In this document: in pieces, positions 1 to 63,241 of the stretch
Layout of the letters: every line of letters starts with the position of its first letter
How positions within the stretch are numbered: the stretch's first letter is position 1
Source of the DNA: Heterodontus francisci
Taxonomy: Eukaryota
Direction: 5' to 3'
Length of the DNA stretch: 64,000 nucleotides
NCBI RefSeq assembly: GCF_036365525.1
Contig: NC_090403.1
Location: 44,703,095 to 44,767,094, forward strand
Notes under the pieces: generated by a model
Seen by the model: the letters and a program-made list of their open reading frames with translations, nothing else
Told to the model about the DNA's origin: nothing
The model's database searches: none
Position numbers and translations under genes: made by a program

Positions 1-133
1 CATGAAGGTAGATAACAGCACAGTAGACATACAAGATGAAAAAAATTAACTTTCAGTATTATGACTTTACATTAATATCTCAGAAACTCATTTCTGGTTC
101 TTACATCTTACAAAAGATCATCGTAAATGAGTC

Positions 134-796
134 TTAAATGTCCATTTTTCCTTCCTCTGCTTTTGCGTTCCCTTCATCCTTTCCACTGTCCTGTTTCTGG
201 TCCTCTTTGCCAGGATTTAGCCGGGGAGTGGTTGTTATATCAGAGGTGATGTTGATGGGGATGGTTTGTTCGTTCACAGCTGGCAGTGCCAGGCGTGGGG
301 CCTGAACCTTTAACCGACCGTCCTGTGACAAACAGCAGTTAAGAGCTTGAGAATCGACATCTTCTGGCAGCTGAAATTCTCTCCTGAATTCTTCATATTT
401 GTAGCTGTAAGAGCCGCTACCATCGTCACTTTTCTTCTCGTGTTTTCCTGTCACCAGCACTTTTCTTCCAAGTACTTTCACCCTCAGTTCTTCTGGGGAG
501 AATCGCTGGACATTCAGGGACAGGGAAAAGCCATCTCCATCCTTGTCCTCTGATTGACTTTTACCTTCTTCATTGTCATCAGGTCTGTTGTCCTGATTTC
601 TTGGTCTTTCCTCCCAAAATTCTTTTGCCAGCTCCTCAAAAACTCGATTGATGAAGTTCTTGCTCTTTCTCGCTTCTTCCATCTGTTTCCACATGTTGCA
701 TTCAAGCGGCTCAAAGACTGTGTGTGGAACAGGCCACAATGTGCACACAGGCTGTTGGCACAGACGTGAAGGGTGGAAAGCCCGACAGCTCAGCAT
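134..796 (-). CDS. HSP30/HSPB9-like small heat shock protein, copy 1 (220 aa, intronless)
   Basis: ATG at 796 (MLSCRAFHP); alpha-crystallin domain (FSLSLNVQRFSPEELRVKV...VTGKHEKK...EFRREFQLPEDVD...LSQDGRLKVQAP) and C-terminal IPI motif; upstream TATA and HSE. Confidence 0.93.
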   Translation of the reverse strand: MLSCRAFHPSRLCQQPVCTLWPVPHTVFEPLECNMWKQMEEARKSKNFINRVFEELAKEFWEERPRNQDNRPDDNEEGKSQSEDKDGDGFSLSLNVQRFSPEELRVKVLGRKVLVTGKHEKKSDDGSGSYSYKYEEFRREFQLPEDVDSQALNCCLSQDGRLKVQAPRLALPAVNEQTIPINITSDITTTPRLNPGKEDQKQDSGKDEGNAKAEEGKMDI

Positions 797-889
797 TGTC
801 TCTGCCTCTTCTCTCACTTCTCTCAAAGCCGACTGATGTGAACTCCCAATCTTCAGTCTCTGATCTGCTGCAGCACTCAGAGCACACGC

Positions 890-1040
890 CTTATATATTC
901 TACTGCCAGAAATCCAGACACTTCCAGAATGAAGGTTGCTGAGTTCATATCACGTGAGCAGAAAAGAATGTCTCCACATCAACCTTGTATTAAACAAGAC
1001 TCACTTCACCAAATGACAGAGGGACAGTTCCAGAACTGTC
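890..1040 (-). promoter_or_regulatory. Heat-shock promoter of copy 1 (TATA, HSEs, E-box)
   Basis: Minus-strand TATATAA at ~891-897; TTCCAGAA HSE cores at ~922-929 and ~1028-1035; CACGTG at 951-956. Confidence 0.75.
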
Positions 1041-2280
1041 TAGCATGTACTGAAAGAGTGACAACACAGGTGGGAGGAGCCTACATGGAGCACTGCTTCA
1101 GATGATTTTGTTTTGAATATAATAACTGGAATAGAGGATCTTAAATCTCCCTAAATTCTCCATTTGTTCCAATAACTCCCTTGAATTCTCAGTAATCTTT
1201 ACTTCCCAATGAAAAATCAGAGTGTGACATAAACTGGACAGGATAGAGAATGGAGTTCTCTACTGCCTTTGTCACCAGATCGTTTCCTAAATTGTGTACG
1301 AAAATCGGTATTTATGTTCTTAAAGCATTGTAGGGAGCTGCGTAATGATATAGAATGAAGATATATTTTCATTTATGTAAGAAAAGCTAATTTCAAGAAG
1401 TTGTGTGAGGGAGGAGGCATGAAGAGAGATGTAACATCAACTTAAAAAATCAGCCACAACACAAAGAATATAAAGAAAATTACACTTGGAAAAAGATGAT
1501 TTGAGAATTAGGTCGACTCAAAACTGTCTGAGACAAGGAACTCAGCCGGCTGGGGACACTCACTGAGTGGTACAGTCCCTAGAAAGTGAATACCATAATG
1601 GGCACAGCTGGTAAAAAAAAACATTCGTCAGTCTTGGAGTCAGTGTTTAGCTGATTTTTCTGTGATTATGAGGATGAGAGGCTTTTAAACAGGATCAGCC
1701 TGTATAATTGCTGATAACAAAATACTGTCTATGAAATATCTCCTCCAGACTGTAGGAATTTGAAGACCATCACTCCATCATCTCGGAATACTGGACAGCA
1801 ACATATTACCATAGCAATGCATGGTGGCAGATTAAACAAAAGACAAGAGAACTGATGGCTCTCTGTGGGGTAGACTCAGAACTTCACTTCATTTAAACCA
1901 GACTGATTTGAATTTCACTCTATTTCACTCTGTTCTTCTGTTGCTAAATATCACTTTAACATCTTGACAGTGAATGAAAAGAGCAAAGCTCGAAAGCCAT
2001 GGACCGACTTCATCATAATGTTACTTTATACTTCATTAAGGAGAACACTTCCAGTTCTTAGCAAACATCACTTTACTACAGGCTCTGCCTCCTGCGAGGC
2101 TGTCAATCATTAACATTGCCCCTCCCATCTGTGCTGTCACTGACTGAGTACATTCCAGAAGTCTCTGGAATTAGTCCAGTGGGTGTCACTGAGCCGAGTC
2201 ATTCTTGTTTAAGGCAAGGCTGAGATGAAACGTCAGTTATTTTCTGCTCACGTGTAATAAACCCAGCAATGTTTAGCTAA
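940..2280. repeat. Intergenic spacer of divergent pair 1, near-identical to the reverse complement of ~7665-9015
   Basis: e.g. 940-1000 reverse-complements to ~8950-9010, and 2221-2290 to ~7655-7725. Confidence 0.92.
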
Positions 2281-2320
2281 TTCTGGAAGTGTCTGGATTT
2301 CTGGCAGTAGAATATATAAG
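2150..2320 (+). promoter_or_regulatory. Heat-shock promoter of copy 2
   Basis: TTCcaGAAgtcTCtgGAA at ~2153-2170, CACGTG at 2249-2254, TTCtgGAA at 2281-2288, TATATAA at 2313-2319. Confidence 0.8.
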
Positions 2321-2413
2321 GCATGTGCTCTGAGTGCTGCAGCAGATCAGAGACTGAAGACTGGGAGTTCACATCAGTCGGGTTTGAGAGAAGTGAGAGA
2401 AGAGGCAGAGACA

Positions 2414-3061
2414 ATGCTGAGCTGTCGGGCTCTCCACCCTTCACGTCTGTGCCAGCAGCCTGTGTGCACATTGTGGCCTGTTCCACACACAGTCTTTGAG
2501 CCGCTTGAATGCAACATGTGGAAACAGGTGGAAGAAGCGAGAAAGAGCAAGAACTTCATCAATCGAGCCTTTGAGGAGCTGGCAAAAGAATTTTGGGAGG
2601 AAAGACCAAGAAATCAAGACAACACACCTGATGACAATGAAGAAGGTAAAAGGCAATCAGAGGACAAGGATGGAGATGGCTTTTCCCTGTCCCTGAATGT
2701 CCAGCGATTCTCCCCAGAAGAACTGAAGGTGAAAGTACTTGGAAGAAAAGTGCTGGTGACAGGAAAACACGAGAAGAAAAGTGACGATGGTAGCGGCTCT
2801 TACAGCTACAAATATGAAGAATTCAGGAGAGAATTTCAGCTGCCAGAAGATGTCGATGCTCAAGCTCTTAACTGCTGTTTGTCACAGGACGGTCGGTTAA
2901 AGGTTCAGGCCCCACGCCTGGCACTGCCAGCTGTGAACGAACAAACCATCCCCATCAACATCACCTCTGATACAACAAGCACTCCCCGGCTAAATCCTGG
3001 CAAAGAGGACCAGAAACAGGACAGTGGAAAGGATGAGGGGAACAAGAAAGCGGAGGATTGA
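2414..3061 (+). CDS. HSP30/HSPB9-like small heat shock protein, copy 2 (215 aa)
   Basis: ATG at 2414; intact alpha-crystallin domain; TGA stop 5 codons earlier than copies 1/3; AATAAA at 3266-3271. Confidence 0.93.
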   Translation: MLSCRALHPSRLCQQPVCTLWPVPHTVFEPLECNMWKQVEEARKSKNFINRAFEELAKEFWEERPRNQDNTPDDNEEGKRQSEDKDGDGFSLSLNVQRFSPEELKVKVLGRKVLVTGKHEKKSDDGSGSYSYKYEEFRREFQLPEDVDAQALNCCLSQDGRLKVQAPRLALPAVNEQTIPINITSDTTSTPRLNPGKEDQKQDSGKDEGNKKAED

Positions 3062-3597
3062 AAAATGGACATTTAAGACTCATTTACAATGATCTTTTGT
3101 AAGATGTAAGAACTGTTTATATGCAGAAATGAGTTCCTGAGATGATATGAAGTTAAAATACTGAAAATTAATTCTTTTCCTCTTGTATGTCTGCTCTGAT
3201 GTTATTTGAATTCATGTGAATTATTTATATTCATGTGAACTATATATATATATATGTATTGAAAGAATAAATATTTTGGAAAAGTAATAGTGATGATTCA
3301 GTTGCTAATTTTAGAAAATGATAGTGACTTTATCCAATTCAAAGGTTAGGCACTTAATTCCCTTCACTCTCAGTAAAGGCACTTATTTTAATTTAAATTA
3401 AAATCCAGAGAACGGATTCTATACGTCAAAATCTGTCTCAAATGGAACTCAATCCAGCACAAAATATCAAAACATTGCACAGACCCAGTGCACCAATAGG
3501 TGAGTACATCTGTGTACGCAGAGGTATTCTCTGCAGCCTCACAATGATCAGTAACAACAGCTTGTCTTCCAACACAGGCACCAGACGGTACGCCAAA

Positions 3598-4903
3598 TCC
3601 ACTCGGGCAAATTACCACCCCATCAGTCTACTCTCAATCATCAGCAAAGTGAAGGAAGGTGTCATCGACAGAGCTATTAAACGACACTTACTCAGTGACA
3701 ACCTGCTCACTGATGCTCAATTTGGTTTCGCCAGAGCCACTCAGCTCCAGACCTCATTTCAGCATTGGTCCAAACATGGACCAAAGAGCTGCATTCCAGA
3801 GGTGAAGTGAGAGTCATTGGCCCTCGATATCAAGGCAGCATTTGACTTACTGTAGCAATAAAGATCTCTAACAAAACTAAAGATAATGGGAATCAGGGGG
3901 AAATCTCTCCACTGGTTGGAGTCATACCTAGCACCGAGGAAGATAGTTGTGGTTTTTGGAGGTCAGTCATATCACCCCAAGGCATTGCTGCAGGAGTTCC
4001 TCAGGGATGTGTCCTAGGCCCAACCATCTTCAGCTGCTTCATCAATGATCTTCCCTGTAACATAAGGTCAGAAGTGGGGATGTTTGCTGATGATTCTACG
4101 GTTTTTATTATAATTCACCGCTCCTCAGATACTGAAACAGATTGTGCTCGTAGGCAGCAAAACCTGGACAAGATTAAGGCTGGGGCTGATAAGTGGCAAA
4201 TAACATTCGCGGCACACAAGTGCAATGCAGTGACCATCTCCAAGAGATGGTCTAACCATCTTTCCATATCATTCTACAGCATTACTATCGCTGAATCCCC
4301 CACCATCAACATCCTCGGGGGTGTTAGCATTAACCAGAATCTTAACTGGACCAGCCATATAAATACTGTGGCTACAAGAGCAGGTCAGAGGCTGGGAATT
4401 CTGCAGCGCGTAACTCACCTCCTGACTCTGCAAAGCCTGTCCACCATGCACAAGTCAGGAGTGTGATGGAATACTCTCCACTTGCCTGAATGGGGGCAGC
4501 TCCGAAAACACTCGAAGTGACACCATCCAGGACATAGCAGCCTGCTTCATCAGTACCCCATCCACAACAATGTTCACTTCCTCCACCACCAGTGCACAGT
4601 GGCAGCAATGTGTATTATCTACAAGATGCAGTGCAGCAACTCACCAAGGCTCCGTCGACAGCACCTTCCATACCCATGGCGTCTACCACCTAGCTGGACA
4701 AGGGCAGCAAACACATGGGAACACCACCACCTGTAAGTTCCCCTCCAAGTCACACACCATCCTGAGTTGCAAATACATCATTGTTCCTTCACTGTCGCTG
4801 GGTCAAAAACTTGGAACTCCCTCTCTAACTACAATGTGAATGTGCCGACACCTCACAGACTGCAGAAGTTCAAGAAGCTGATTCACCATCACCTTCTCAA
4901 AGG
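3598..4903 (+). mobile_element. Non-LTR retrotransposon (CR1/L2-group LINE, 'family A'), decayed RT and 3' end
   Basis: RT fragments YHPISLLSIISKV, LLTDAQFGF, GVPQG, MFADDS, NWTSHINTVATRAGQRLGIL with frameshifts and stops. Confidence 0.85.
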
Positions 4904-5134
4904 CACATAATCTTGAAAATGAATTTTAAAAACTGAGAAGGACGAGGAGATTTTGTTTTTAAGCAGCTGTTAACTGGAATGGAATGTCTGAAAGAGTGGT
5001 GGAAGCAGATTCAATGGCAGCTTTCAAAAGTGAAATGTATATATATACCAACAAATAAATAATTTGCAAAGCTTTGAGCAAAGAGCAGGGGAGTGGGAAT
5101 AATTGGATAGGATTTTCAAAGAGGTGAGACCAGG

Positions 5135-5720
5135 GATGAGTTGCTCACCGCAGATTTCCCAGCCTCTGACCTCCTCTTATAGCCACAGTATTTATATGGC
5201 TGGTCCAGTTAAGTTTCTGGTCCAATGGTAACCCCCAGGATGTTGTTAGTGGAGGATTCAGCGATGGTGATGCTGTTGAATGTCAAGAGGTGATGGTAAG
5301 ATTCTCTCTTATTGGAGATGGTCATGGCCTGGCTTTTGTGTGGCACAGATATTACTTGCCACAAATCAGTCCAAGCCTGAACGTTGTGCAGGTCTTGCTG
5401 CATGGAGACACGGACTGCTTCAGCATCTAAGGAGTTGTGAATGGTGCTGCACATCGTACAATCATCAGTTCAGAAGCACAAGTCATCAGTACTAAAGTTG
5501 TGATATTGTCAGGGCCCTTAGCCTTTGCTATTTCCAGTGCCTTCAGAGTTTCAATTGTCTGAAGATGGTTGAAAATGCTTCAGCCGTGTCTTTTGCACTG
5601 ATGTACCAGACTCCGCCATCGTTGAGGATGGGAATGTTTTGCAGCTGCCTCCTCCAGTTAGTTGTTTAATTGTCAACCACGATTCATGACTGGATATGGC
5701 AGGACTGCAGAGCTTTGATG
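5135..5720 (-). mobile_element. LINE family A fragments
   Basis: Reverse-complement similarity to 4100-4420; ORF ...QAMTISNKRES...ITIAESS. Confidence 0.75.
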
Positions 5721-6868
5721 TATTAATATATTGACTGAGAACATCAACATTGACAACAGTTTATTGATGTCATGTAGCAATGTTTTACTTTACTTTTGTA
5801 TTATGAGATTAAATCAGTAATCGTGATGGCCCTACAATTAATGTTGGTTAAAGCTCCCAATATTATAACTTCCCTGAAAGGTTAAATGACAATTTCTATA
5901 ACACACAAGATTCTCCTACGAACTGCAACATGAATCTTTACTCCCTGCTGTGTTTTTGTGAGGGTAGCAATTAAATATATTCCAGGTTTATTAGAAGTTC
6001 ATTTTGAGTTTATGTTTATACATCATTTAATACTTCACTACTGGATCACTTGTGGCATTTCTTGTGTGTAGTCTGGGACCTGTGGTACGATTCTTCATGT
6101 TTCCCGCTGTCCTGCATCATAATGAACTCGGGCAGTTTGTCCGTCACTGTAATACCTTAAACTTACTGATGGAATAGAACTATTGAATGACACTGCGAAA
6201 AATATGACACATCTTACTGATACTGAAAGGTACAGACCTCAAGGGTAGAGGATTAGTCATACTGTTGAACAAAAACTTTATAAAACACCCTTATGATGCA
6301 AGTAACTTTGCTTTTTCCCCCAGTAATTTATATTGAACAGATATCCCAATGAAAGAGGCTTCCACCATCCAGTAAATGAATGGTGTACTGTCTGGCGCCT
6401 GTGTTGAAAGACAAGCTGTTCTTGCTTCTCATTGTGAGGCTGCAGGGAATACCTCTGGATAGAGAGATGTCCTCGTCTATTGGTGCACTGGGTCTGCACA
6501 ATAAATCTTTTTTAATGGATCGAGTTCAGTTTAAAGCAGATCATGACATATAGAATCCTTTCTCTGGCTTTTGAGTTAAATTAAACTGACTGTCTTTACA
6601 GAGAGTGAAGGGAAGTAAGTGCCTCGGTTTTGAATTCAATCATATTATTTTCTGTTTTTCAAGTTAACAAGCGGACTCATTGTCATTACTTTTCCAAAAG
6701 GTTTATTGTTTCAATAGATATGTATAAATAATTCACATGAAGGTAGATAACAGCACAGTAGACATACAAGATGAAAAAAATTAACTTTCAGTATTATGAC
6801 TTTATATTAATATCTCAGAAACTCATTTCTGGTTCTTACATCTTACAAAAGATCATCGTAAATGAGTC

Positions 6869-7531
6869 TTAAATGTCAATTTTTCCTTCCTCTGCTTTTG
6901 TGTTCCCTTCATCCTTTCCACTGTCCTGTTTCTGGTCCTCTTTGCCAGGATTTAGCCGGGGAGTGCTTGTTGTATCACTGGTGATGTTGATGGGGATGGT
7001 TTGTTCGTTCACAGCTGGCAGTGCCAGGCGTGGGGCCTGAACCTTTAACCGACCGTCCTGTGACAAACAGCAGTTAAGAGCTTGAGCATCGACATCTTCT
7101 GGCAGCTGAAATTCTCTCCTGAATTCTTCATATTTGTAGCTGTAAGAGCCGCTACCATCGTCACTTTTCTTCTCGTGTTTTCCTGTCACCAGCACTTTTC
7201 TTCCAAGTACTTTCACCCTCAGTTCTTCTGGGGAGAATCGCTGGACATTCAGGGACAGGGCAAAGCCATCTCCATCCTTGTCCTCTGATTGACTTTTACA
7301 TTCTTCATTGTCATCAGGTCTGTTGTCCTGATTTCTTGGTCTTTCCTCCCAAAATTCTTTTGCCAACTCCTCAAAAACTCGATTGATGAAGTTCATGCTC
7401 TTTCTCGCTTCTTCCATCTGTTTCCACATGTTGCATTCAAGCGGCTCAAAGACCGTGTGTGGAACAGGCCACAATGTGCACACAGGCTGCTGGCACAGAC
7501 GTGAAGGGTGGAGAGCCCGACAGCTCAGCAT
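6869..7531 (-). CDS. HSP30/HSPB9-like small heat shock protein, copy 3 (220 aa)
   Basis: ATG at 7531; intact alpha-crystallin domain; minus-strand AATAAA at 6702-6707; 3' UTR nearly identical to copy 1. Confidence 0.93.
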   Translation of the reverse strand: MLSCRALHPSRLCQQPVCTLWPVPHTVFEPLECNMWKQMEEARKSMNFINRVFEELAKEFWEERPRNQDNRPDDNEECKSQSEDKDGDGFALSLNVQRFSPEELRVKVLGRKVLVTGKHEKKSDDGSGSYSYKYEEFRREFQLPEDVDAQALNCCLSQDGRLKVQAPRLALPAVNEQTIPINITSDTTSTPRLNPGKEDQKQDSGKDEGNTKAEEGKIDI

Positions 7532-7619
7532 TGTCTCTGCCTCTTCTCTCACTTCTCTCAAACCCAACTGATGTGAACTCCCAGTCTTCAGTCTCTGATC
7601 TGCTGCAGCACTCAGAGCA

Positions 7620-7795
7620 CACGCCTTATATATTCTACTGCCAGAAATCCAGACACTTCCAGAATTAGCTAAACATTGCTGGGTTTATTACACGTGAGCA
7701 GAAAATAACTGACGTTTCATCTCAGCCTTGCCTTAAACAAGAATGACTCGGCTCAGTGACACCCACTGGACTAATTCCAGAGACTTCTGGAATGT
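7620..7795 (-). promoter_or_regulatory. Heat-shock promoter of copy 3 (copy-2-type spacer end)
   Basis: TATA ~7626-7632, TTCCAGAA ~7657-7664, CACGTG 7691-7696, distal HSE ~7774-7792. Confidence 0.75.
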
Positions 7796-9015
7796 ACTCA
7801 GTCAGTGACAGCACAGATGGGAGCTGCAGTGTTAATGATTGACAGCCTGGCAGGAGGCAGAGCCTGTAGTAAAGTGATGTTTGCTAAGAACTGGAAGTGT
7901 TCTCCTTAATGAAGTATAAAGTAACATTATGATGAAGTCGGTCAGTGGCTTCGAGCTTTGCTCTTTTCACTCACTTTCAAGATGTTAAAGTGATATTTAG
8001 CAACAGAAGAACAGAGTGAAATAGAGTGAAATTCAAATCAGTCTGGTTTAAATGAAGTGCAGTTCTGAGTCTACCCCACAGAGAGCCATCAGTTCTCTTG
8101 TCTTTTGTTTAATCTGCCACCATGCATTGCTATGGTAATATGTTGCTGTCCAGTATTCCGAGATGATGGAGTGATGGTCTTTAAATTCCTACAGTCTGGA
8201 GGAGATATTTCATTGACAGTATTTTGTTATCAGCAATTATACAGGCTGATCCTGTTTAAAAGCCTCTCATCCTCATAGTCACAGAAAAATCAGCTAAACA
8301 CTGACTCCAAGACTGACCAATATGTTTTTTTTTACCTGCTGTGCCCATTATGGTATTCACTTTCTAGAGTCTGTACCACTCAGTGAGTGTCCCCAGCCGG
8401 CTGAGTTCCTTGTCTCAGACAGTTTTGAGTCGACCTAATTCTCAAATCATCTTTTTCCAAGTGTAATTTTCTTTATATTCTTTGTGTTGTGGCTGATTTT
8501 TTAAGTTGATGTTACATCTCTCTTCATGCCTCCTCCCTCACACAACTTCTTGAAATTAGCTTTTCTTACATAAATGAAAATATATCTTCATTCTATATCA
8601 TTACGCAGCTCCCTACAATGCTTTAAGAACATAAATACCGATTTTCGTACACAATTTAGGAAACGATCTGGTGACAAAGGCAGTAGAGAACTCCATTCTC
8701 TATCCTGTCCAGTTTATGTCACACTCTGATTTTTCATTGGGAAGTAAAGATTACTGAGAATTCAAGGGAGTTATTGGAACAAATGGAGAATTTAGGGAGA
8801 TTTAAGATCCTCTATTCCAATTATTATATTCAAAACAAAATCATCTGAAGCAGTGCTCCATGTAGGCTCCTCCCACCTGTGTTGTCACTCTTTCAGTACA
8901 TGCTAGACAGTTCTGGAACTGTCCCTCTGTCATTTGTTGAAGTCATTCTTGTTTAATACAATGTTGATGGGGAGACATTCTTTTCTGCTCACGTGATATG
9001 AAGTCAGCAATCTTC
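7665..9015. repeat. Intergenic spacer of divergent pair 2 (inverted copy of 940-2280)
   Basis: Near-identity by eye to the reverse complement of spacer 1. Confidence 0.92.
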
Positions 9016-9060
9016 ATTCTGGAAGTGTCTGGATTTCTGGCAGTAGAATATATAAGGCGT
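8905..9060 (+). promoter_or_regulatory. Heat-shock promoter of copy 4 (copy-1-type spacer end)
   Basis: TTCtgGAA at 8911-8918 and 9017-9024, CACGTG at 8990-8995, TATATAA ~9050-9056. Confidence 0.72.
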
Positions 9061-9148
9061 GTGCTCTGAGTGCTTCAGCAGATCAGAGTCTGAAGACTGG
9101 GAGTTCACATCAGTCAGGTTTAGAGAAGTGAGAGAAGAGGCAGAGACA

Positions 9149-9772
9149 ATGCTGAGCTGTTGGGTTTTCCACCCTTCACGTCTGTGCCAGCAGCCTGTGT
9201 GCACATTGTGGCCTGTTCCACACACAGTCTTTGAGTCGCTTGAATGCAACATGTGGAAACAGGTGGAAGAAGTGAGAAAGAGCATGAACATCATCAATCG
9301 AGTCTTTGAGGAGCTGGCAAAAGAATTTTGGGAGGAAAGACCAAGAAATCAGGACAACAGACCTGATGACAATGAAGAAGGTAAAAGGCAATCAAAGGAC
9401 AAGGATGGAGATAGCTTTTCCCTGTCCCTGAATGTCCAATGATTCTCCCCAGAAGAACTGAAGGTGAAAATACTTGGAAGAAAAGTGCTGGTGACAGGAA
9501 AACACGAGATGAAAACTGACGATGGGAGCAGCTCTTACAGCTACAAATATGAAGAATTCAGGACAGAATGTCAGCTGCCAGAAGATGTCGATGCTCAAGC
9601 TCTTAACTGCTGTTTGTCACAGGACGGTCGGTTAAAGGTTCAGGCCCCACGCCTGGCACTGCCAGCTGTGAATGGACAAACCGTCCCCCTCAATATCACC
9701 AGTGATACAACAACCACTCCCCGGCTAAATCCTAGCAAAGAGGCCCAGAAACAGGATAGTGGAAAGGATTAA
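9149..9772 (+). pseudogene. HSP30-like copy 4, nonsense-disrupted
   Basis: ATG 9149; CGA>TGA at codon 98 (9440-9442) early in the alpha-crystallin domain; frame continues to a second stop TAA at 9770-9772 (Glu codon in paralogs); several private missense changes. Confidence 0.85.
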
Positions 9773-10199
9773 GGGAATTGCCAAGAAGCTGAAAAGAAAG
9801 TGGATGTTTTGGGCTCGTTTACAATCAACTTGAGCTTAAATGACAGAGTAATTTAATGCTAGCAGAAATAGATTCATGTGAATCTGAAGAATGTGAATTA
9901 TTTCTTTGCTGTATGTCTGAAACATTCCTTCTGTTCCACATATTTGTTTTTGATGAGTATTGTATTTAAAATGTTATATTTTGGCAATAAATTAAAAACT
10001 TCTCACTTTATGTTTGTTCATTTCAAAATAGACAATTGTGCAATTTTATCATTTATATCGAACTTCAAATTCTGTTGCAGGTTCATGTCTGAAGACAGTG
10101 TGATTTAAAGGAATTGTAGGTTTACATTAACATTCTGCAAAGCCGCTTTGAGTGGAAATGAATCTCGGTAAACTGTTGTTTTGGCAGTCCTCTGCATTA

Positions 10200-11396: not shown

Positions 11397-12021
11397 AGAG
11401 TCAGAGTCGTACAGCATAGAAACAGGCCCTTCAGCTCACCGGGTCCATGCCGACCATAATGCCTATCTATACTAATCCCACCTGCCTGCATTAATTCCAT
11501 ATCCTTCTATGCCTTGCTCATTCAAGTACCTGTCCAGATGCCTCTTAAATGTCGCTAGTGTTCCTGCCTCCCCCACCTCCTCTGGCAGCTCATTCCAGAT
11601 ACCCACTATTCTTTGGGAAACAGACTCTGGCTATCTACCCTAGCTATGCCTCTCATAATTTTATATACCTCTATCATGTCCCCTCTCAGCTGCCTTCGCT
11701 CCAGGGAAAACAGGCCCAGCCTATCCAATCTCTCTTTATAACTCAAGCCCTCCAAACCAGGCAACATCCTTGTGAATCTTTTCTGCGCCTCTCTAGCTTA
11801 ATCACATCTTTCCTGTAGTGCGGCGACCAGAACTGCACACAGTACTCCAAATGCGGCCTAACCAACGTTATGTACAACTGTAACAAGACGTCCCAACTCT
11901 TGTACTCAATGCCTCGGCCGCTGAAGGCAAGCATGCCATACGCCTTCTTCACAACCCTGTCTACCTGTGTTGCCACTTTCAGGGAACTATGCACTTGCAC
12001 CCCAAGGTCTCTGCTCAACAA
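11397..12021 (-). mobile_element. CR1 (HER1-like) LINE 3' fragment
   Basis: RDLGVQVH...LYITLVRPHLEYCVQFWSPHYRKD; CR1 3' tail with short repeats. Confidence 0.88.
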
Positions 12022-12522: not shown

Positions 12523-13155
12523 TCAGCCTTTCTTGTTCCCCTCATCCCTTCCACTGGTCTCGTGGACAGGAGTTAGCCGGGGAGTGGTTGTTGTATCACT
12601 GGTGATGTTGATGGGGATGGTTCGTTCATTCACAGCTGGCAGTGCCAGGCGTGGGGCCTGAACCTTTAACCAACCGTCCTGTGACAAACAGCAGTTAAGA
12701 GCTTGAGCATCCACATCTTCTGGCAGCTGAAATTCTCTCCTGAATTCTTCGTATTTGTAGCTGTAAGAACCACTCCCATCATCACTTTTCTTCTCGTGCG
12801 TTCCTGTCACCAGCACTTTCCTTCCAAGTACTTTCACCTTCAGTTCCTCTGGGGAGAATCGCTGGACATTCAGGGACAGAGAAAAGCCATCTCCATCCTT
12901 GTCCTCTGATTGTCTTTTACCTTCTTTGTTATCACCAGGTCTTTTGTCCTGATTTCTTGGTCTTTCCTGCCAAAATTCTTTTGCCAGCTCCTCAAAAACC
13001 CAATTCATGAAGTTCATGCTCTTTCTTGCTGCTTCCACCCGCTGCTTCCACATGTTGCATTCAAGCGGCTCAGAGACTGTGTGTGGAACAGACCACACTG
13101 TGCACACAGGCTGCTGCCACAGACGTGAAGGGTGGAAATCCCGACAGCTCAGCAT
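12523..13155 (-). CDS. HSP30/HSPB9-like small heat shock protein, copy 5 (210 aa, most diverged)
   Basis: ATG at 13155; intact alpha-crystallin domain and IPI; 1-codon insertion (KQRV) and shorter C-terminus. Confidence 0.9.
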   Translation of the reverse strand: MLSCRDFHPSRLWQQPVCTVWSVPHTVSEPLECNMWKQRVEAARKSMNFMNWVFEELAKEFWQERPRNQDKRPGDNKEGKRQSEDKDGDGFSLSLNVQRFSPEELKVKVLGRKVLVTGTHEKKSDDGSGSYSYKYEEFRREFQLPEDVDAQALNCCLSQDGWLKVQAPRLALPAVNERTIPINITSDTTTTPRLTPVHETSGRDEGNKKG

Positions 13156-13244
13156 TGTCTCTGCCTCTTCTCTCACTTCTCTAAACCTGACTGATGTGAT
13201 CTCCCACTCTTCAGTCTCTGATCTGCTGCAGCACTCAGAGCATA

Positions 13245-13410
13245 TGCCTTATATATTCTACTCCCAGAAATCCAGACACTTCCAGAATTAGCTAAATATT
13301 GCTGGGTTTATTACACTTGAGCAGAAAATAACTGATGTCTCAGCCTTGTTTTAAACAAGAATGACTCAACTCAGTGACACCAATGTATTTTAGAAACTTC
13401 TGGAATTATC
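13245..13410 (-). promoter_or_regulatory. Heat-shock promoter of copy 5
   Basis: TATA ~13249-13255, TTCCAGAA ~13280-13287, distal GAAacTTCtgGAA ~13393-13405; E-box altered to CACTTG. Confidence 0.7.
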
Positions 13411-14919
13411 CTGTCCTCGTGGCATGTCTTGGATGAGAGCCAACAATTCCGTGCCAATATTGTATTACATGTTATGAAACAGTAAATAGTCTTAATTTCT
13501 AGTGGTTTGTTGGAGGGTAAATCATAGAAATAAAGTACTAAAACAGTGATCTGGAAATGTGCCTAGTGAAGTTGAAGTATTTAACAAGCAGGTGACAGAT
13601 ATGTGAAGGTCTGAAGGAGTGACCATGGTCTCTCTAGAGTTCTGAGACAGCTAAGACAAACATCTCTTACACTCTCCCACCTCATATCCAGATACTTGGC
13701 AATTTTTCTAACTGCATCAACATGCCACACATGGACAATTATTCGCCTCAGTACTCAACAGTCAATTCTAGTCACTTACAAATTTACCCTAACATTTTTG
13801 TTCTACTTAGTGCCTGACTATTTATTCCGCTGTAGAGGAACAGCAGTAAGTCAGAAATAGGCCAGCATTAGTCACATCAAAATAAATGTAGACAATGACA
13901 CCCTATCTCACCTTGTCGAGGGCAGCAGAACCAGTGATGTGGCCTGCGCTTGGTGGGGCGGGGGGCAGTAAATCTAAAACTAATCTGCAGAAATAATATT
14001 TCAGTGAGTGTTCAATCTGTTGAATAGACTCCCTGGGGAAATGGTGGAAGTAGTTAGTATTGATTTATTCAAATGCAAATGAGTATACGAGTAATTCGAC
14101 ATATCACAATGTGGTCAAGGGGGATAACGGTGACTTTGAATGTATGGTTCCCAATGCTCTCCACCACTGGGGTTTTCCTTGTGTCTTGTTGTAAACTAAT
14201 TGATAGACACAGATTGCTGTGATTAGTCAACAACTCCATTATCATTGTACATGTGATTATCAGGGTGGTAACAGGCAAACTAAAATCGACTCTGGCCTTT
14301 TATGTCCAGCAATTCCCATATTCTAATAGATTTGAGTACAATCCTGAGCCTGTGCTGATATTTGTAAACTTTTGTCATTTTGCTTTGACCTGATCAGAAT
14401 AATTTGATTAAGTTCCAGGTGCATTGCCAGCTATTGTTAGTACAAAAGGAACAAAGCTGAATAACTTTAATTCCACTGGACAAAGGAACGGCATTGATAG
14501 GTACCCACTGTGTTTATCAGTCTGAATTTGATATTTCTTGTATAAAAAAAAGCATGAGAAAAATCAGCACTGCAGAGGAATAGAAAGGTTCAAAAAGGGG
14601 AGGGTGTGACTGTTAGGAAGCCAAGTAGCGAGGCCTTAGGAGAGGTCATGAAGGAGGTCCCCCAGCCACTGGTCCTGTCCAACAGATACAGTGTACTCTC
14701 TACCTGTGAGGTAAAGGCAAACGACTGTCGGCATGACTGTCACAATACAGACCAAAGCACCATAGCTCAGAAGGCTGTCCAAAGGGGGTTGGGGGGAGAA
14801 CAGAACAGAAATGTGGTAGTGGTGGAGGATTGTACATTTAGGGGGAATAGATAGCATTCTCTGAAGCCACAAACAAGAGTCCCGAAGGTTGTGTTGCCTA
14901 ACCAGTACCAGGGCAACAT

Positions 14920-15050
14920 AAAAGCAAAATACTGCGGATGCTGGAAATCTGAAATAAAAACAAGTAACGCTGGAAATACTCAGCAGGTCTGGCAGAATCT
15001 GTTGAGATAAAAGCAGAGTTAACGTTGCAGGTCAGTGACCCTTCTTCAGA
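14920..15050 (-). mobile_element. Short Penelope-terminus insertion with 13-bp TSD
   Basis: Flanked by ACCAGGGCAACAT (14907-14919) and ACCAGGGTAACAT (15051-15063); same repeat as the PLE ends at 38490 and 42250. Confidence 0.72.
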
Positions 15051-15176
15051 ACCAGGGTAACATATCTCGAAGCAGCTGGAGAGGAATTTGGAAAAGGAGG
15101 GAGAAAATCCAGATGTTGTGGTCCATGTCAAAACAAACATAGATAGCAACGGGGAGGAAGTATCAGGAGTTAGGAG

Positions 15177-15709: not shown

Positions 15710-16210
15710 GCACACGACAGCCTGCCAGACTGAAATTGAGTTCAATAATTTCAGAGTATGACGGGCCCCCCTTTTTATTTTCAGTTTTTTAAAATTTTAG
15801 TTTGTTTCAGCATTCATTTTTCTTACCATGTGCCTGCCCACTTTTTTCATATTAGCGCTTTGGGCCAGGGCTGTTCATTTTTCTGTCCGTTAACACCCTC
15901 TCTGCACTAATGCTTTGTCTTTCAACACACCATTATCATACCATTTGCCTTTGCTCCATGACCTTCTGGTCAGTTATTCTCTGTGACCCTGTCCTTCAAC
16001 ACCTTCACTTTTGTTATCTCTTGCCTCACCCCTGCTTTACTTGCTTAAAACCTATGACATTTCTAACCTTTGCCAGTTCTGAAGAAGGGTTACTGACCTG
16101 AAATGCCATCTCTGCTTCCCTCTCCACAGATGCTGCCAGACCTGGCGTATTTCCAGCATTTCTTGTTTTTATTTAACATTTCCAGCATCTGCAGTATTTT
16201 GCTTTTATTA
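15710..16210 (+). mobile_element. Penelope-like element 3' end
   Basis: Ends in the recurrent terminal repeat (CTGAAGA...GACCTGAAA...CAGATGCTGCC...ATTTTGCTTTT). Confidence 0.6.
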
Positions 16211-17521: not shown

Positions 17522-17624
17522 ATGATGGGCTGAATGGCCTTGCTGTGCTGCATCATTCTCACTCTTTTGGTGTGTATATTGGCAGTTTCTCATCTTTTAA
17601 CCTTGCACATAGGATATTAGAATA

Positions 17625-17835
17625 CAAAAGCAAAATAGTGTGGGTGCTAGAAATCTGAAATAAAAACAGAAAATGCTGGAAATATTCAGATCTGGCAGCA
17701 TCTATGGAAAGAGTTAATGTTTCAGGTCGATGACCTTTCATCAGAACTGGTCATTGACCTGAAATGTTAAAGATTTCTTTCTCCCTACAGATGCTGCCAG
17801 ACTTGCTGAGTATCTCTAGCATTTTCTGTTTATAT
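17625..17835. repeat. Inverted dimer of the Penelope terminal repeat with a hammerhead-like motif
   Basis: Left half reverse-complements the right half; HHR-like core on minus at 17712-17748. Confidence 0.72.

Positions 17836-22562: not shown

Positions 22563-63241
<40,679 letters not shown>

Follow-up and report, generated by a model that had tools for sequence, protein, structure and literature searches.

An oppositely oriented promoter spacer in the HSP30 gene cluster of the horn shark as a trace of recombination among near-identical copies

Two neighbouring head-to-head pairs of HSP30 genes of the horn shark, Heterodontus francisci, share a promoter spacer that is inverted in one pair relative to the other. 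This difference is real but is an ordinary trace of recombination among near-identical copies, as in worms and flies, and it requires no switch. The locus, analysed within 64,000 nt of DNA (hereafter the window), is an ordinary HSP30 paralogue cluster adjoining KAT2A. One of its genes, copy 1, is a chimera, with the promoter type of copy 4 (P1) on a copy-3-type body and 3' flank, joined near nt 42-114 of the coding sequence.

Gene copies and their family

The window contains five HSP30 copies, c1-, c2+, c3-, c4+ and c5- (Table 1), the first four of which form two divergent pairs with a spacer between the partners, with the positions and strands given in the initial annotation of this DNA. Copy 2 carries an HSP20 (alpha-crystallin) domain (PF00011, E=1.5e-19, residues 85-182). 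Among 66 matches at E<=1e-20 the best named relatives were shark HSP30C-like/HSPB11-like proteins, at 83-85% identity. In a tree of 60 proteins the copies cluster by species or lineage, with 22 label changes against a shuffled mean of 45.5, and none of 200 shuffles gave a value as low. As in the horn shark, this family is multi-copy in most of the listed sharks and rays; within a species the copies (RefSeq/UniRef names HSP30C-like and HSPB11-like) mostly lie on a single record. We found no description of the shark HSP30 locus in the open-access literature, which does not show its absence from print.

The products of copies 1 to 3 differ from one another at 7-9/209 residues (copies 1 and 2 at 9/209, plus the C-terminal tail). 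The protein cluster has four members; P0069, a sixth copy, and copy 2 are different at 19/209 residues. Copy 5 is more diverged (about 93%) and served as the outgroup for the other window copies. In copy 4 the two stops are a TGA at codon 98 (9440-9442) and a TAA at codon 208 (9770-9772); it differs privately from copies 1 to 3 at 25 sites, 20 of them non-synonymous or nonsense and 5 synonymous.

Upstream of all five copies stand a TATA at -100/-101 and, within 270 bp, 3-4 matches to the general HSE consensus, against a background of 0.24 HSE-like matches per kb in the 14-64 kb part of the window. The genes probably encode heat-inducible small chaperones, with putative HSF sites at either end of the spacer driving them.

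Table 1. Features of the horn shark HSP30 cluster (positions in the window)
Feature	Position	Strand	Remarks
HSP30 copy 1 (c1)	134..796	-	uninterrupted 220-aa ORF
HSP30 copy 2 (c2)	2414..3061	+	215 aa; stop 5 codons before that of copies 1/3
HSP30 copy 3 (c3)	6869..7531	-	uninterrupted 220-aa ORF, promoter P2
HSP30 copy 4 (c4), pseudogene	9149..9775	+	two in-frame stops, own 3' flank
HSP30 copy 5 (c5)	12523..13155	-	210 aa; P2-like proximal promoter; without spacer core
Copy 1 3' flank (type F)	1..133	-	1/133 mismatch against copy 3 flank; runs past left window edge
3' flank F' of copy 2	3062..3595	+	old inverted homologue of copy 3 flank
3' flank F of copy 3	6381..6868	-	AATAAA-type signals 162 and 353 nt past stop
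Centre between inverted arms	3596..6380	.	remnants of decayed repeats (probable LINE)
Promoter P1 of copy 1	797..1080	-	TATA -101; HSE-like -133, -239/-244; CACGTG -160
Unique spacer core, pair 1	1081..2117	.	sole other window copy 7830-8865, inverted, 98.4%
Promoter P2 of copy 2	2118..2413	+	TATA -101; HSE-like -133, -256 to -266; CACGTG -165
Spacer of pair 2 (P2 - core - P1)	7532..9148	.	inverted relative to pair 1; 31/1615 mismatches

The promoter spacer and the inverted arms

Each pair is head-to-head, with an ATG-to-ATG spacer of 1617 bp. The inversion of a spacer of about 1.35 kb in pair 2, reported in the initial annotation, was confirmed: 1349 nt lie between the 98%-complementary gene arms, and from ATG to ATG the two spacers align in inverted orientation with 31 mismatches over 1615 bases. 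The core of spacer 1 (1081-2117) scored 1982 against the spacer of pair 2 when inverted and 30 in direct orientation, so that the inverted match is far beyond chance. The two promoter types are 97.8% identical over their last 134 nt and 72.4% identical in the distal part (-283 to -135), where their HSE-like arrays differ.

The identity between the two spacers is patchy. At the P1 end, copy 1 (797-1009) differs from copy 4 at 13/214 positions, against 21/1404 elsewhere (p=0.0002; permutation 3/400), and the core contains an identical run of 449 bp (1127-1575). The length of this run was tested on the spacer without the divergent P1 end, which had inflated the result (p=0.0006), and gave p=0.006, or p=0.047 with clustered differences merged. 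Patchy identity and a long identical run are what conversion would leave.

A single inverted alignment (114-3595 against 9831-6381, 93.1%) runs past the genes into the 3' flanks of copies 2 and 3, extending about 530 bp beyond their stops; F' and F (6381-6868) align over 484 bases with 88 mismatches (81.8% identity). The centre has repeat matches between 3594-4855 and 56416-57663 and, inverted, between 4087-4417 and 5137-5468; a Pfam scan of two of its ORFs gave no hit, and its LINE label is putative. Inverted repeats bound spacer 1 (copies 1 and 2; 761 bp at 97.9%, longest perfect match 130 bp), spacer 2 (761 bp at 94.7%) and the centre (2032 bp at 98.2%). A scan of 700-2500 found five inverted pairs, all inside paralogous promoter/5' ends, and no dedicated short recombination sites in inverted orientation at the spacer ends.

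That a segment carrying promoters lies between inverted repeats is the one point in favour of a regulated invertible promoter switch active in somatic cells. We find such a switch hardly credible: the same TATA and candidate proximal HSE-like site stand at both ends, within the 97.8%-identical last 134 nt, and judging by sequence an inversion would not switch a gene on or off; the products differ at 7-9/209 residues only, one partner of pair 2 is dead, and the inverted repeats around spacer 1 are all paralogue-derived. In a Pfam scan for recombinases, translations of six stretches, drawn from six of 19 listed ORFs, gave HSP20 and RVT_1 only, a scan which a spliced or distant gene would escape. 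An assembly artefact, in which spacer 1 was misoriented between the copy 1 and copy 2 repeats, is very unlikely. Short reads leave the orientation of a unique segment between 761-bp repeats of 97.9% identity ambiguous, and the pattern does become simpler when pair 1 is un-flipped, but the window contains no N, the record holding the proteins is 60.4 Mb long, and copies 2% apart, with no perfect copy 1/copy 2 match above 130 bp, were resolved with private variants.

Coding variants and the chimeric copy 1

Promoter and flank types are coupled in copies 2 and 3 (P2, F) and in copy 4 (P1, own flank), and copy 1 alone is mixed. Its match to copy 3 in direct orientation, in which position 1 had been noticed to correspond to 6736, was recovered by blastn (1-1076 against 6736-7823), and the 3' ends of copies 1 and 3 are indeed near-identical (1/133 bases different), against 86.9% identity between the flanks of copies 1 and 2.

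The marker residues are distributed as originally described: codon 7 is Leu in copies 2 and 3 and Phe in copies 1, 4 and 5, and among the five window copies Met39, Ser80 (KSQ) and Arg105 (ELR) occur in copies 1 and 3 only. The proposal that codon 7 follows the spacer was right as to these states; Phe7, however, predominates among other sharks in an alignment of 15 proteins, so that codon 7 links only copy 2 with copy 3 and was discarded as a two-sided marker. In the same alignment one copy from the white shark also has Met39, and one from a sawshark has Ser80; single residues can therefore recur.

A switch point in the 5' coding sequence, predicted between codons 7 and 39, was seen. The best breakpoint for copy 3 lies at nt 42-114 (best summed breakpoint nt 19-114), and among copies 1 to 3 the odd one is copy 1 at -53, -32, +19 and +42 and copy 2 at seven sites between +115 and +314, both included. 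A runs test on this series, with the switch between +42 and +115, gave p=0.035; the contrast has a post hoc Fisher p=0.01, or p=0.11 with sites up to nt 627 counted, and the gain in total mismatches is small (44 with the switch, 50 without). Some sites track neither spacer nor flank: +137 and +553/554 join copies 1 and 2, and +566 joins copies 2 and 3, which share derived sites before and after the supposed switch point (+19 and +566). Because derived sites variously join copies 1 and 3, 1 and 2, and 2 and 3, no single crossover explains the coding sequence; the 1+2 and 2+3 sites downstream of the switch rule it out. The paralogues thus appear to exchange sequence by gene conversion; the sites are few, and single ones may be recurrent mutations.

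The initial annotation had derived this arrangement from a tandem duplication of the whole pair, followed by a crossover between copies 3 and 4 (codons 7-39) that inverted the spacer of pair 2 and swapped promoters. The youth of the copy 1/copy 3 flank and body and the best summed breakpoint agree with this scheme, and the swap stands for copy 1, which joins P1 to a copy-3-type body. It does not extend to copy 4, which does not look chimeric because its promoter end has aged like its coding sequence (13/214 and 35/627; p=0.86). The scheme fails because copy 4 should equal copy 2 after the crossover, yet after codon 38 they differ at 30/513 bases, against 31/1615 in the spacer (p=2e-5). Their flanks have in common only the first ~140 nt, at ~70% identity, and un-flipping pair 2 gives the poorer fit. 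We have rejected this history, on the copy 2/copy 4 bodies and flanks, as extremely improbable; the alternative given with it, inverted duplication with gene conversion, fits at least as well.

Recombination history and comparison with other heat-shock loci

We give about even chances to an old inverted duplication whose arms gene conversion has kept similar in patches, together with an exchange from copy 3 to copy 1. A head-to-head pair with a shared two-way promoter spacer would have undergone an ancient inverted duplication, and the 82%-identical F/F' flanks would be what is left of the resulting palindrome, centred on 3596-6380. Arm-to-arm conversion may then have renewed the spacer core, P2 and the genes of copies 2 and 3 in patches, while copy 4 and its promoter end would have dropped out of conversion and decayed. 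A direct-orientation conversion or unequal exchange from copy 3, starting at about nt 42-114, would have replaced the body and 3' flank of copy 1, a one-sided promoter swap leaving P1 on a copy 3 body.

This history is supported by the one continuous inverted alignment reaching past the stops of copies 2 and 3, by mixed types in copy 1 only, by the lack of a near-identical copy 2 twin among the four protein-cluster members, by the derived sites +19 and +566, by the species or lineage grouping of the tree and by the like layout of C. elegans hsp16, for which PMC3966223 reports conversion as the explanation. Against it, un-flipping pair 1 yields one even young tract (34/2201, 1.5%) followed by 47/840 (5.6%), and two conversion events of similar age would have to meet near the same place. 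Conversion would also have had to span roughly 1.4 kb of non-coding DNA between the genes, against a usual tract length of a few hundred bp (PMC3961182), and yet to spare the inner flanks. The bodies of copies 2 and 3 (14/547) are no closer than the spacer core (21/1404; p=0.13).

The even tract is better accommodated by a corrected form of the original idea, which we regard as possible and hold tentatively. Both pairs would once have had the same orientation; at least 2.2 kb (F, copy 3 body, P2 and core) would have been copied onto pair 1 by direct exchange, with the tract ending about 213-330 bp before the old start of copy 2, and a one-off crossover of the inverted copies 1 and 2 at nt 42-114 would have turned spacer 1 round, with a reciprocal exchange of the promoters. 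The flip would thus lie in pair 1, not in pair 2 where it had been placed: un-flipping pair 1 is better by 5.6 lnL units (2/150 permutations as large). The copy 1/copy 3 body and flank (12/716) and the core (21/1404) have the same apparent age (p=0.72), which together with the odd-copy switch and the 761-bp repeats agrees with such a flip; since copies 1 and 2 share derived sites, the pairing needed for it does occur. An earlier extra event is required, however, to set P1 on an F'-flanked gene, more patches are needed at +137, +553/554 and +566, and the switch gains little. Full unequal crossover predicts a twin of copy 2 to the left, and none was seen among the four cluster members, a search by protein that a pseudogene or an identical protein would escape; P0069 is too different to be that twin and was ruled out.

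A single round of replication in which the template changed twice between inverted copies, placing P2-core-P1 inverted and then the copy 3 body and flank direct, is distinctly unlikely. Duplication with an inverted segment by template switching is known from the human rearrangement literature, and it would give the observed order in one event, with young segments of similar age. The P1 of copy 1 should then be as young as the core, yet it differs from that of copy 4 at 13/214 positions (p=0.0002), and copy 1 should have the Leu7 of copy 3, yet has Phe.

The C. elegans hsp16-1/hsp16-48 locus was reportedly described by Russnak and Candido in 1985 (cited in PMC3966223 and PMC1584275). Like the favoured reading of the shark cluster, by old inverted duplication and conversion, it involves a head-to-head small HSP pair whose genes share one divergent promoter and which has been copied into an inverted repeat, and PMC3966223 puts its high arm identity and diverged flanks down to gene conversion. 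The shark module is likewise repeated inverted nearby (114-3595 against 9831-6381). The worm modules are 1.9 kb long, 100% identical and 416 bp apart (PMC3966223), whereas 2.8 kb separates the shark arms, whose divergence is patchy (0-6% within the spacer, 18% across the inner flanks); of the outer shark genes, one is a pseudogene and the other carries the inner gene's body and flank. Inverted heat-shock gene pairs also occur in flies: the review PMC3924832 describes the palindromic Drosophila pairs Hsp70Aa/Ab and Ba/Bb as homogenised by conversion, and states that breaks in such pairs lead to conversion or to crossovers giving inversions. For Stratiomys, PMC3071340 reports rearranged hsp70 clusters, an inverted S1/S3 pair in one phage clone, and 3'-UTRs converted over at least 300 bp. 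Unlike the shark genes, these are Hsp70 genes of insects, and several alleles with shared polymorphism are known there, against one haplotype here.

It is unlikely that spacer 1 is still flipping by recombination between copies 1 and 2, with both orientations segregating among horn sharks. Unique segments between inverted homologous repeats can invert by NAHR, often recurrently (11/16; PMC3961182). The repeats in that study measure 1.6-24 kb, a range which only the repeats bounding the centre reach among the three shark pairs, and its inversions are polymorphic, unlike that in the shark, known from one orientation of one haplotype. If flipping did take place, it would amount to a recurrent, gene-bounded promoter-swap polymorphism at a vertebrate stress locus. 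It would hand different induction strengths to proteins differing at 9/209 residues and in the C-terminal tail, because P1 and P2 differ distally (72%, distinct HSE-like arrays); the effect should be small, since core promoters and proteins are nearly alike. The locus would gain in importance if both orientations segregate and alter expression.

The cluster exemplifies the churn in head-to-head heat-shock pairs, in which one copy has gained a promoter type and another is dead, while a non-coding two-way promoter has been kept 98% identical between pairs. It extends the C. elegans layout to a vertebrate small-HSP cluster, and identity between copies is of no use for dating duplications in the shark HSP30 cluster.

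Gene copies, promoters and the inverted spacer

A small heat-shock gene was found in five uninterrupted copies (copies 1 to 5) within the first 13.2 kb of the window, copies 1 and 2 (pair 1) and copies 3 and 4 (pair 2) being arranged head to head. The spacer measures 1617 bp from ATG to ATG in both pairs, and its inversion between them, claimed in the initial annotation, was confirmed: only 31 of 1615 positions mismatch in inverted orientation, and the unique core (1081-2117 in pair 1) scored 1982 inverted against 30 direct, with no further copy of this core elsewhere in the window. The spacer length of ~1.35 kb put forward earlier corresponds to the 1349 nt separating the 98% identical gene arms, and the 3' flank noted as common to copies 1 and 3 is indeed so (1/133 mismatches). 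The inverted match is one alignment, also taking in the 3' flanks of copies 2 and 3 (81.8% identity, 88/484 mismatches).

Coordinates of features in the window
Feature	Position	Strand	Remark
Copy 1	796 to 134	-	HSP30 copy
Copy 2	2414 to 3061	+	HSP20 domain found
Copy 2, 3' end	3059-3076	+	TGA where copies 1 and 3 have Gly
Copy 3	7531 to 6869	-	HSP30 copy
Copy 4	from 9149	+	pseudogene
Copy 4, stops	9440-9442, 9770-9772	+	codons 98 and 208, both in-frame
Copy 5	13155 to 12523	-	HSP30 copy; outgroup of variant table
Copy 5 promoter	13156-13406		P2-like
KAT2A-like first exon	starts 22530	+	E=2.6e-7 to KAT2A
Inverted alignment	114-3595 vs 9831-6381		one alignment
Arms around the centre	1010-3040 vs 6905-8936		inverted
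Dispersed ~135-bp repeat	14915-15052, 16076-16208, 17621-17750, 36502-36637, 38487-38634, 49649-49846, 52402-52520, 58266-58407	both	75-88% alike
Decayed retroelement copies	53722-54845, 43536-44725, 26685-27466, 11397-12012		
ORF	53751		reverse transcriptase domain (PF00078)
Low-complexity region	42497-43243		GC-rich, proline-rich; open frames on both strands
Direct repeat in this region	42813-42967 vs 43023-43173		

The two promoter ends of the spacer, P1 (serving copies 1 and 4) and P2 (copies 2 and 3), are 97.8% identical in the final 134 nt, falling to 72.4% between -283 and -135. In each of the five copies TATATAA lies at -100/-101, with HSE-like sites around -133 and from -240 to -266. 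The copy 5 promoter resembles P2 (93-94% over about 250 bp), holds the sole 9-of-9 HSE match and lacks the CACGTG box of the other four copies.

The proteins of copies 1 to 3 differ from one another at 7-9 of 209 residues, and the best named relatives of copy 3 are shark HSP30C-like and HSPB11-like proteins (66 matches). In copy 2 KMDI can still be read in frame past the stop, and the tail is 5 residues shorter. Of the 25 sites at which copy 4 differs from copies 1 to 3, 20 are non-synonymous or nonsense. Despite two stops it retains the TATA box and the HSE-like sites, so that it may be a transcribed pseudogene. The 90% protein cluster holding copies 1 to 3 has four members, the fourth being the Heterodontus francisci RefSeq protein P0069 (XP_067869097.1), presumably a sixth copy lying outside the window. 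Its residues form a mosaic (Val6 and Ala199 like copy 4, Ser149 like copy 1, Arg105 like copies 1 and 3), with 10 extra residues at the N-terminus and a frame-shifted tail resembling the 3' UTR of the copy 1/copy 3 flank type (F) in another frame.

The KAT2A-like acetyltransferase gene faces copy 5 head to head across about 9.4 kb; in mammals HSPB9 adjoins KAT2A. The dispersed ~135-bp repeat is probably a SINE or LINE end.

Exchange among the copies

Copy 1 consists of P1 joined to a body and flank of the copy 3 type. The tandem duplication proposed earlier did not hold: if whole pairs had been duplicated in this way copies 2 and 4 would be twins, yet beyond codon 38 they differ at 30 of 513 positions, a higher rate than the 31 of 1615 seen in the spacer (p=2e-5). 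Past codon 209, their first ~140 nt are ~70% identical, with no flank homology found beyond. Divergence within the spacer is uneven, with 13/214 differences at the P1 end and 21/1404 elsewhere (p=0.0002; 3/400 permutations) and a 449-bp identical run (p=0.006; p=0.047 after merging clustered sites). The P1 end has aged like the copy 4 coding sequence (13/214 vs 35/627; p=0.86); copy 4, like its promoter end, predates the identity of the spacer core.

With derived states polarised by copy 5, sequence has been exchanged in more than one pairing: such states are common to copies 2 and 3 at +19 and +566, to copies 1 and 3 at +115 and +314, and to copies 1 and 2 at +137 and +553/554, while +156 and +240 set 1 and 3 against 2 and 4. 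Copies 1 to 3 have 24 two-state sites from -134 to +627, copy 3 being odd at 8; without these the odd-copy series reads 2111122222221112 (5 runs, p=0.035), which places a switch between +42 and +115. The switch in the 5' coding sequence, proposed between codons 7 and 39, was recovered: copy 3 taken as copy 2 followed by copy 1 has its best breakpoint at nt 42-114 (10 mismatches, the two extremes giving 12 and 15), with modest, post hoc support (p=0.01 if sites are counted as far as nt 314, p=0.11 as far as nt 627) and a second patch of copy 1-odd sites downstream, at +445 to +566. For copy 4 no breakpoint improved the fit (33 vs 34-35 mismatches). That copies 1 and 4 both have Phe7 is no evidence of exchange, because most other sharks have this residue too.

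Routes to the present arrangement

How the cluster came to its present form we infer from these patterns. An old inverted duplication giving a palindrome, of which F and the copy 2 flank (F') would be the remnant, may have been followed by gene conversion, a history to which we give an even chance. It agrees with the F/F' remnant, the patchy spacer, the linkage between promoter and flank types in three of the four genes, and the copy 2/copy 3 derived sites on either side of the switch. These same four observations speak against a flip of the pair 1 spacer, which we hold possible but less likely; both gradings are judgements, not computed values. The flip draws its support from the same 3041 aligned columns taken in two orders: turning the pair 1 spacer back yields a single tract of 34/2201 differences (1.5%) followed by 47/840 (5.6%), and turning back pair 2, where the inversion had been placed originally, is worse by 5.6 log-likelihood units (2/150 permutations as large), so any flip was in pair 1. 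Against it also counts that no twin of copy 2 was found among the four cluster members (P0069 differs from copy 2 at 19/209 residues), a weak point since a pseudogene or an identical protein would not show. Conversion within a palindrome and the pair 1 flip are one process, recombination between paralogues, the first resolved without a crossover and the second with one.

Spacer 1 is bounded by repeats of 761 bp (97.9%, longest perfect match 130 bp), and spacer 2 by repeats of 94.7% identity. The cluster's best recombination substrate is the pair of arms bounding not a spacer but the 3.9-kb centre (2032 bp, 98.2%, with the 449-bp perfect run); a flip of the centre would put copies 2 and 3 both behind P2. 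No short dedicated recombination sites were found around spacer 1, two tests, this one included, set the locus apart from recombinase-driven switches, and nothing in the sequence points to a regulated switch.

Known systems and HSP30 copies in sharks and rays

The inverted arrangement is real and of a kind already known. In the passages cited, C. elegans hsp16-1/hsp16-48 form a 1.9-kb head-to-head small-HSP module with an inverted duplicate 416 bp away, their identity being ascribed to conversion (PMC3966223); Drosophila Hsp70 genes form palindromic pairs whose breaks are resolved by conversion or inversion-causing crossovers (PMC3924832); and in Stratiomys hsp70 clusters are rearranged and 3'-UTRs converted (PMC3071340). 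As far as these accounts go, the shark locus works alike. Human inversions are described as recurrent between inverted repeats of 1.6-24 kb (PMC3961182), whereas polymorphic status is hypothetical for the shark locus, with its 761 bp around spacer 1.

Sharks and rays usually have several HSP30 copies; their clusters at 90% identity hold 7 to 27 members, and those listed, up to 15 for each cluster, come mostly from one species or a few related ones. In a tree built from 60 proteins (copy 4, read through with X, and 59 of 69 others; 7 short shark and 3 tortoise sequences left out), 22 changes of species label were needed, where shuffled labels gave a mean of 45.5 (0/200 as low), a count that cannot tell conversion from recent duplication because near-copies cluster by construction. 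A weakly supported branch (72/88; present in 68% of bootstrap trees) separates the six horn-shark copies from the rest of the tree. Judged from these sequences, the pattern fits a continual turnover and homogenisation of HSP30 copies.
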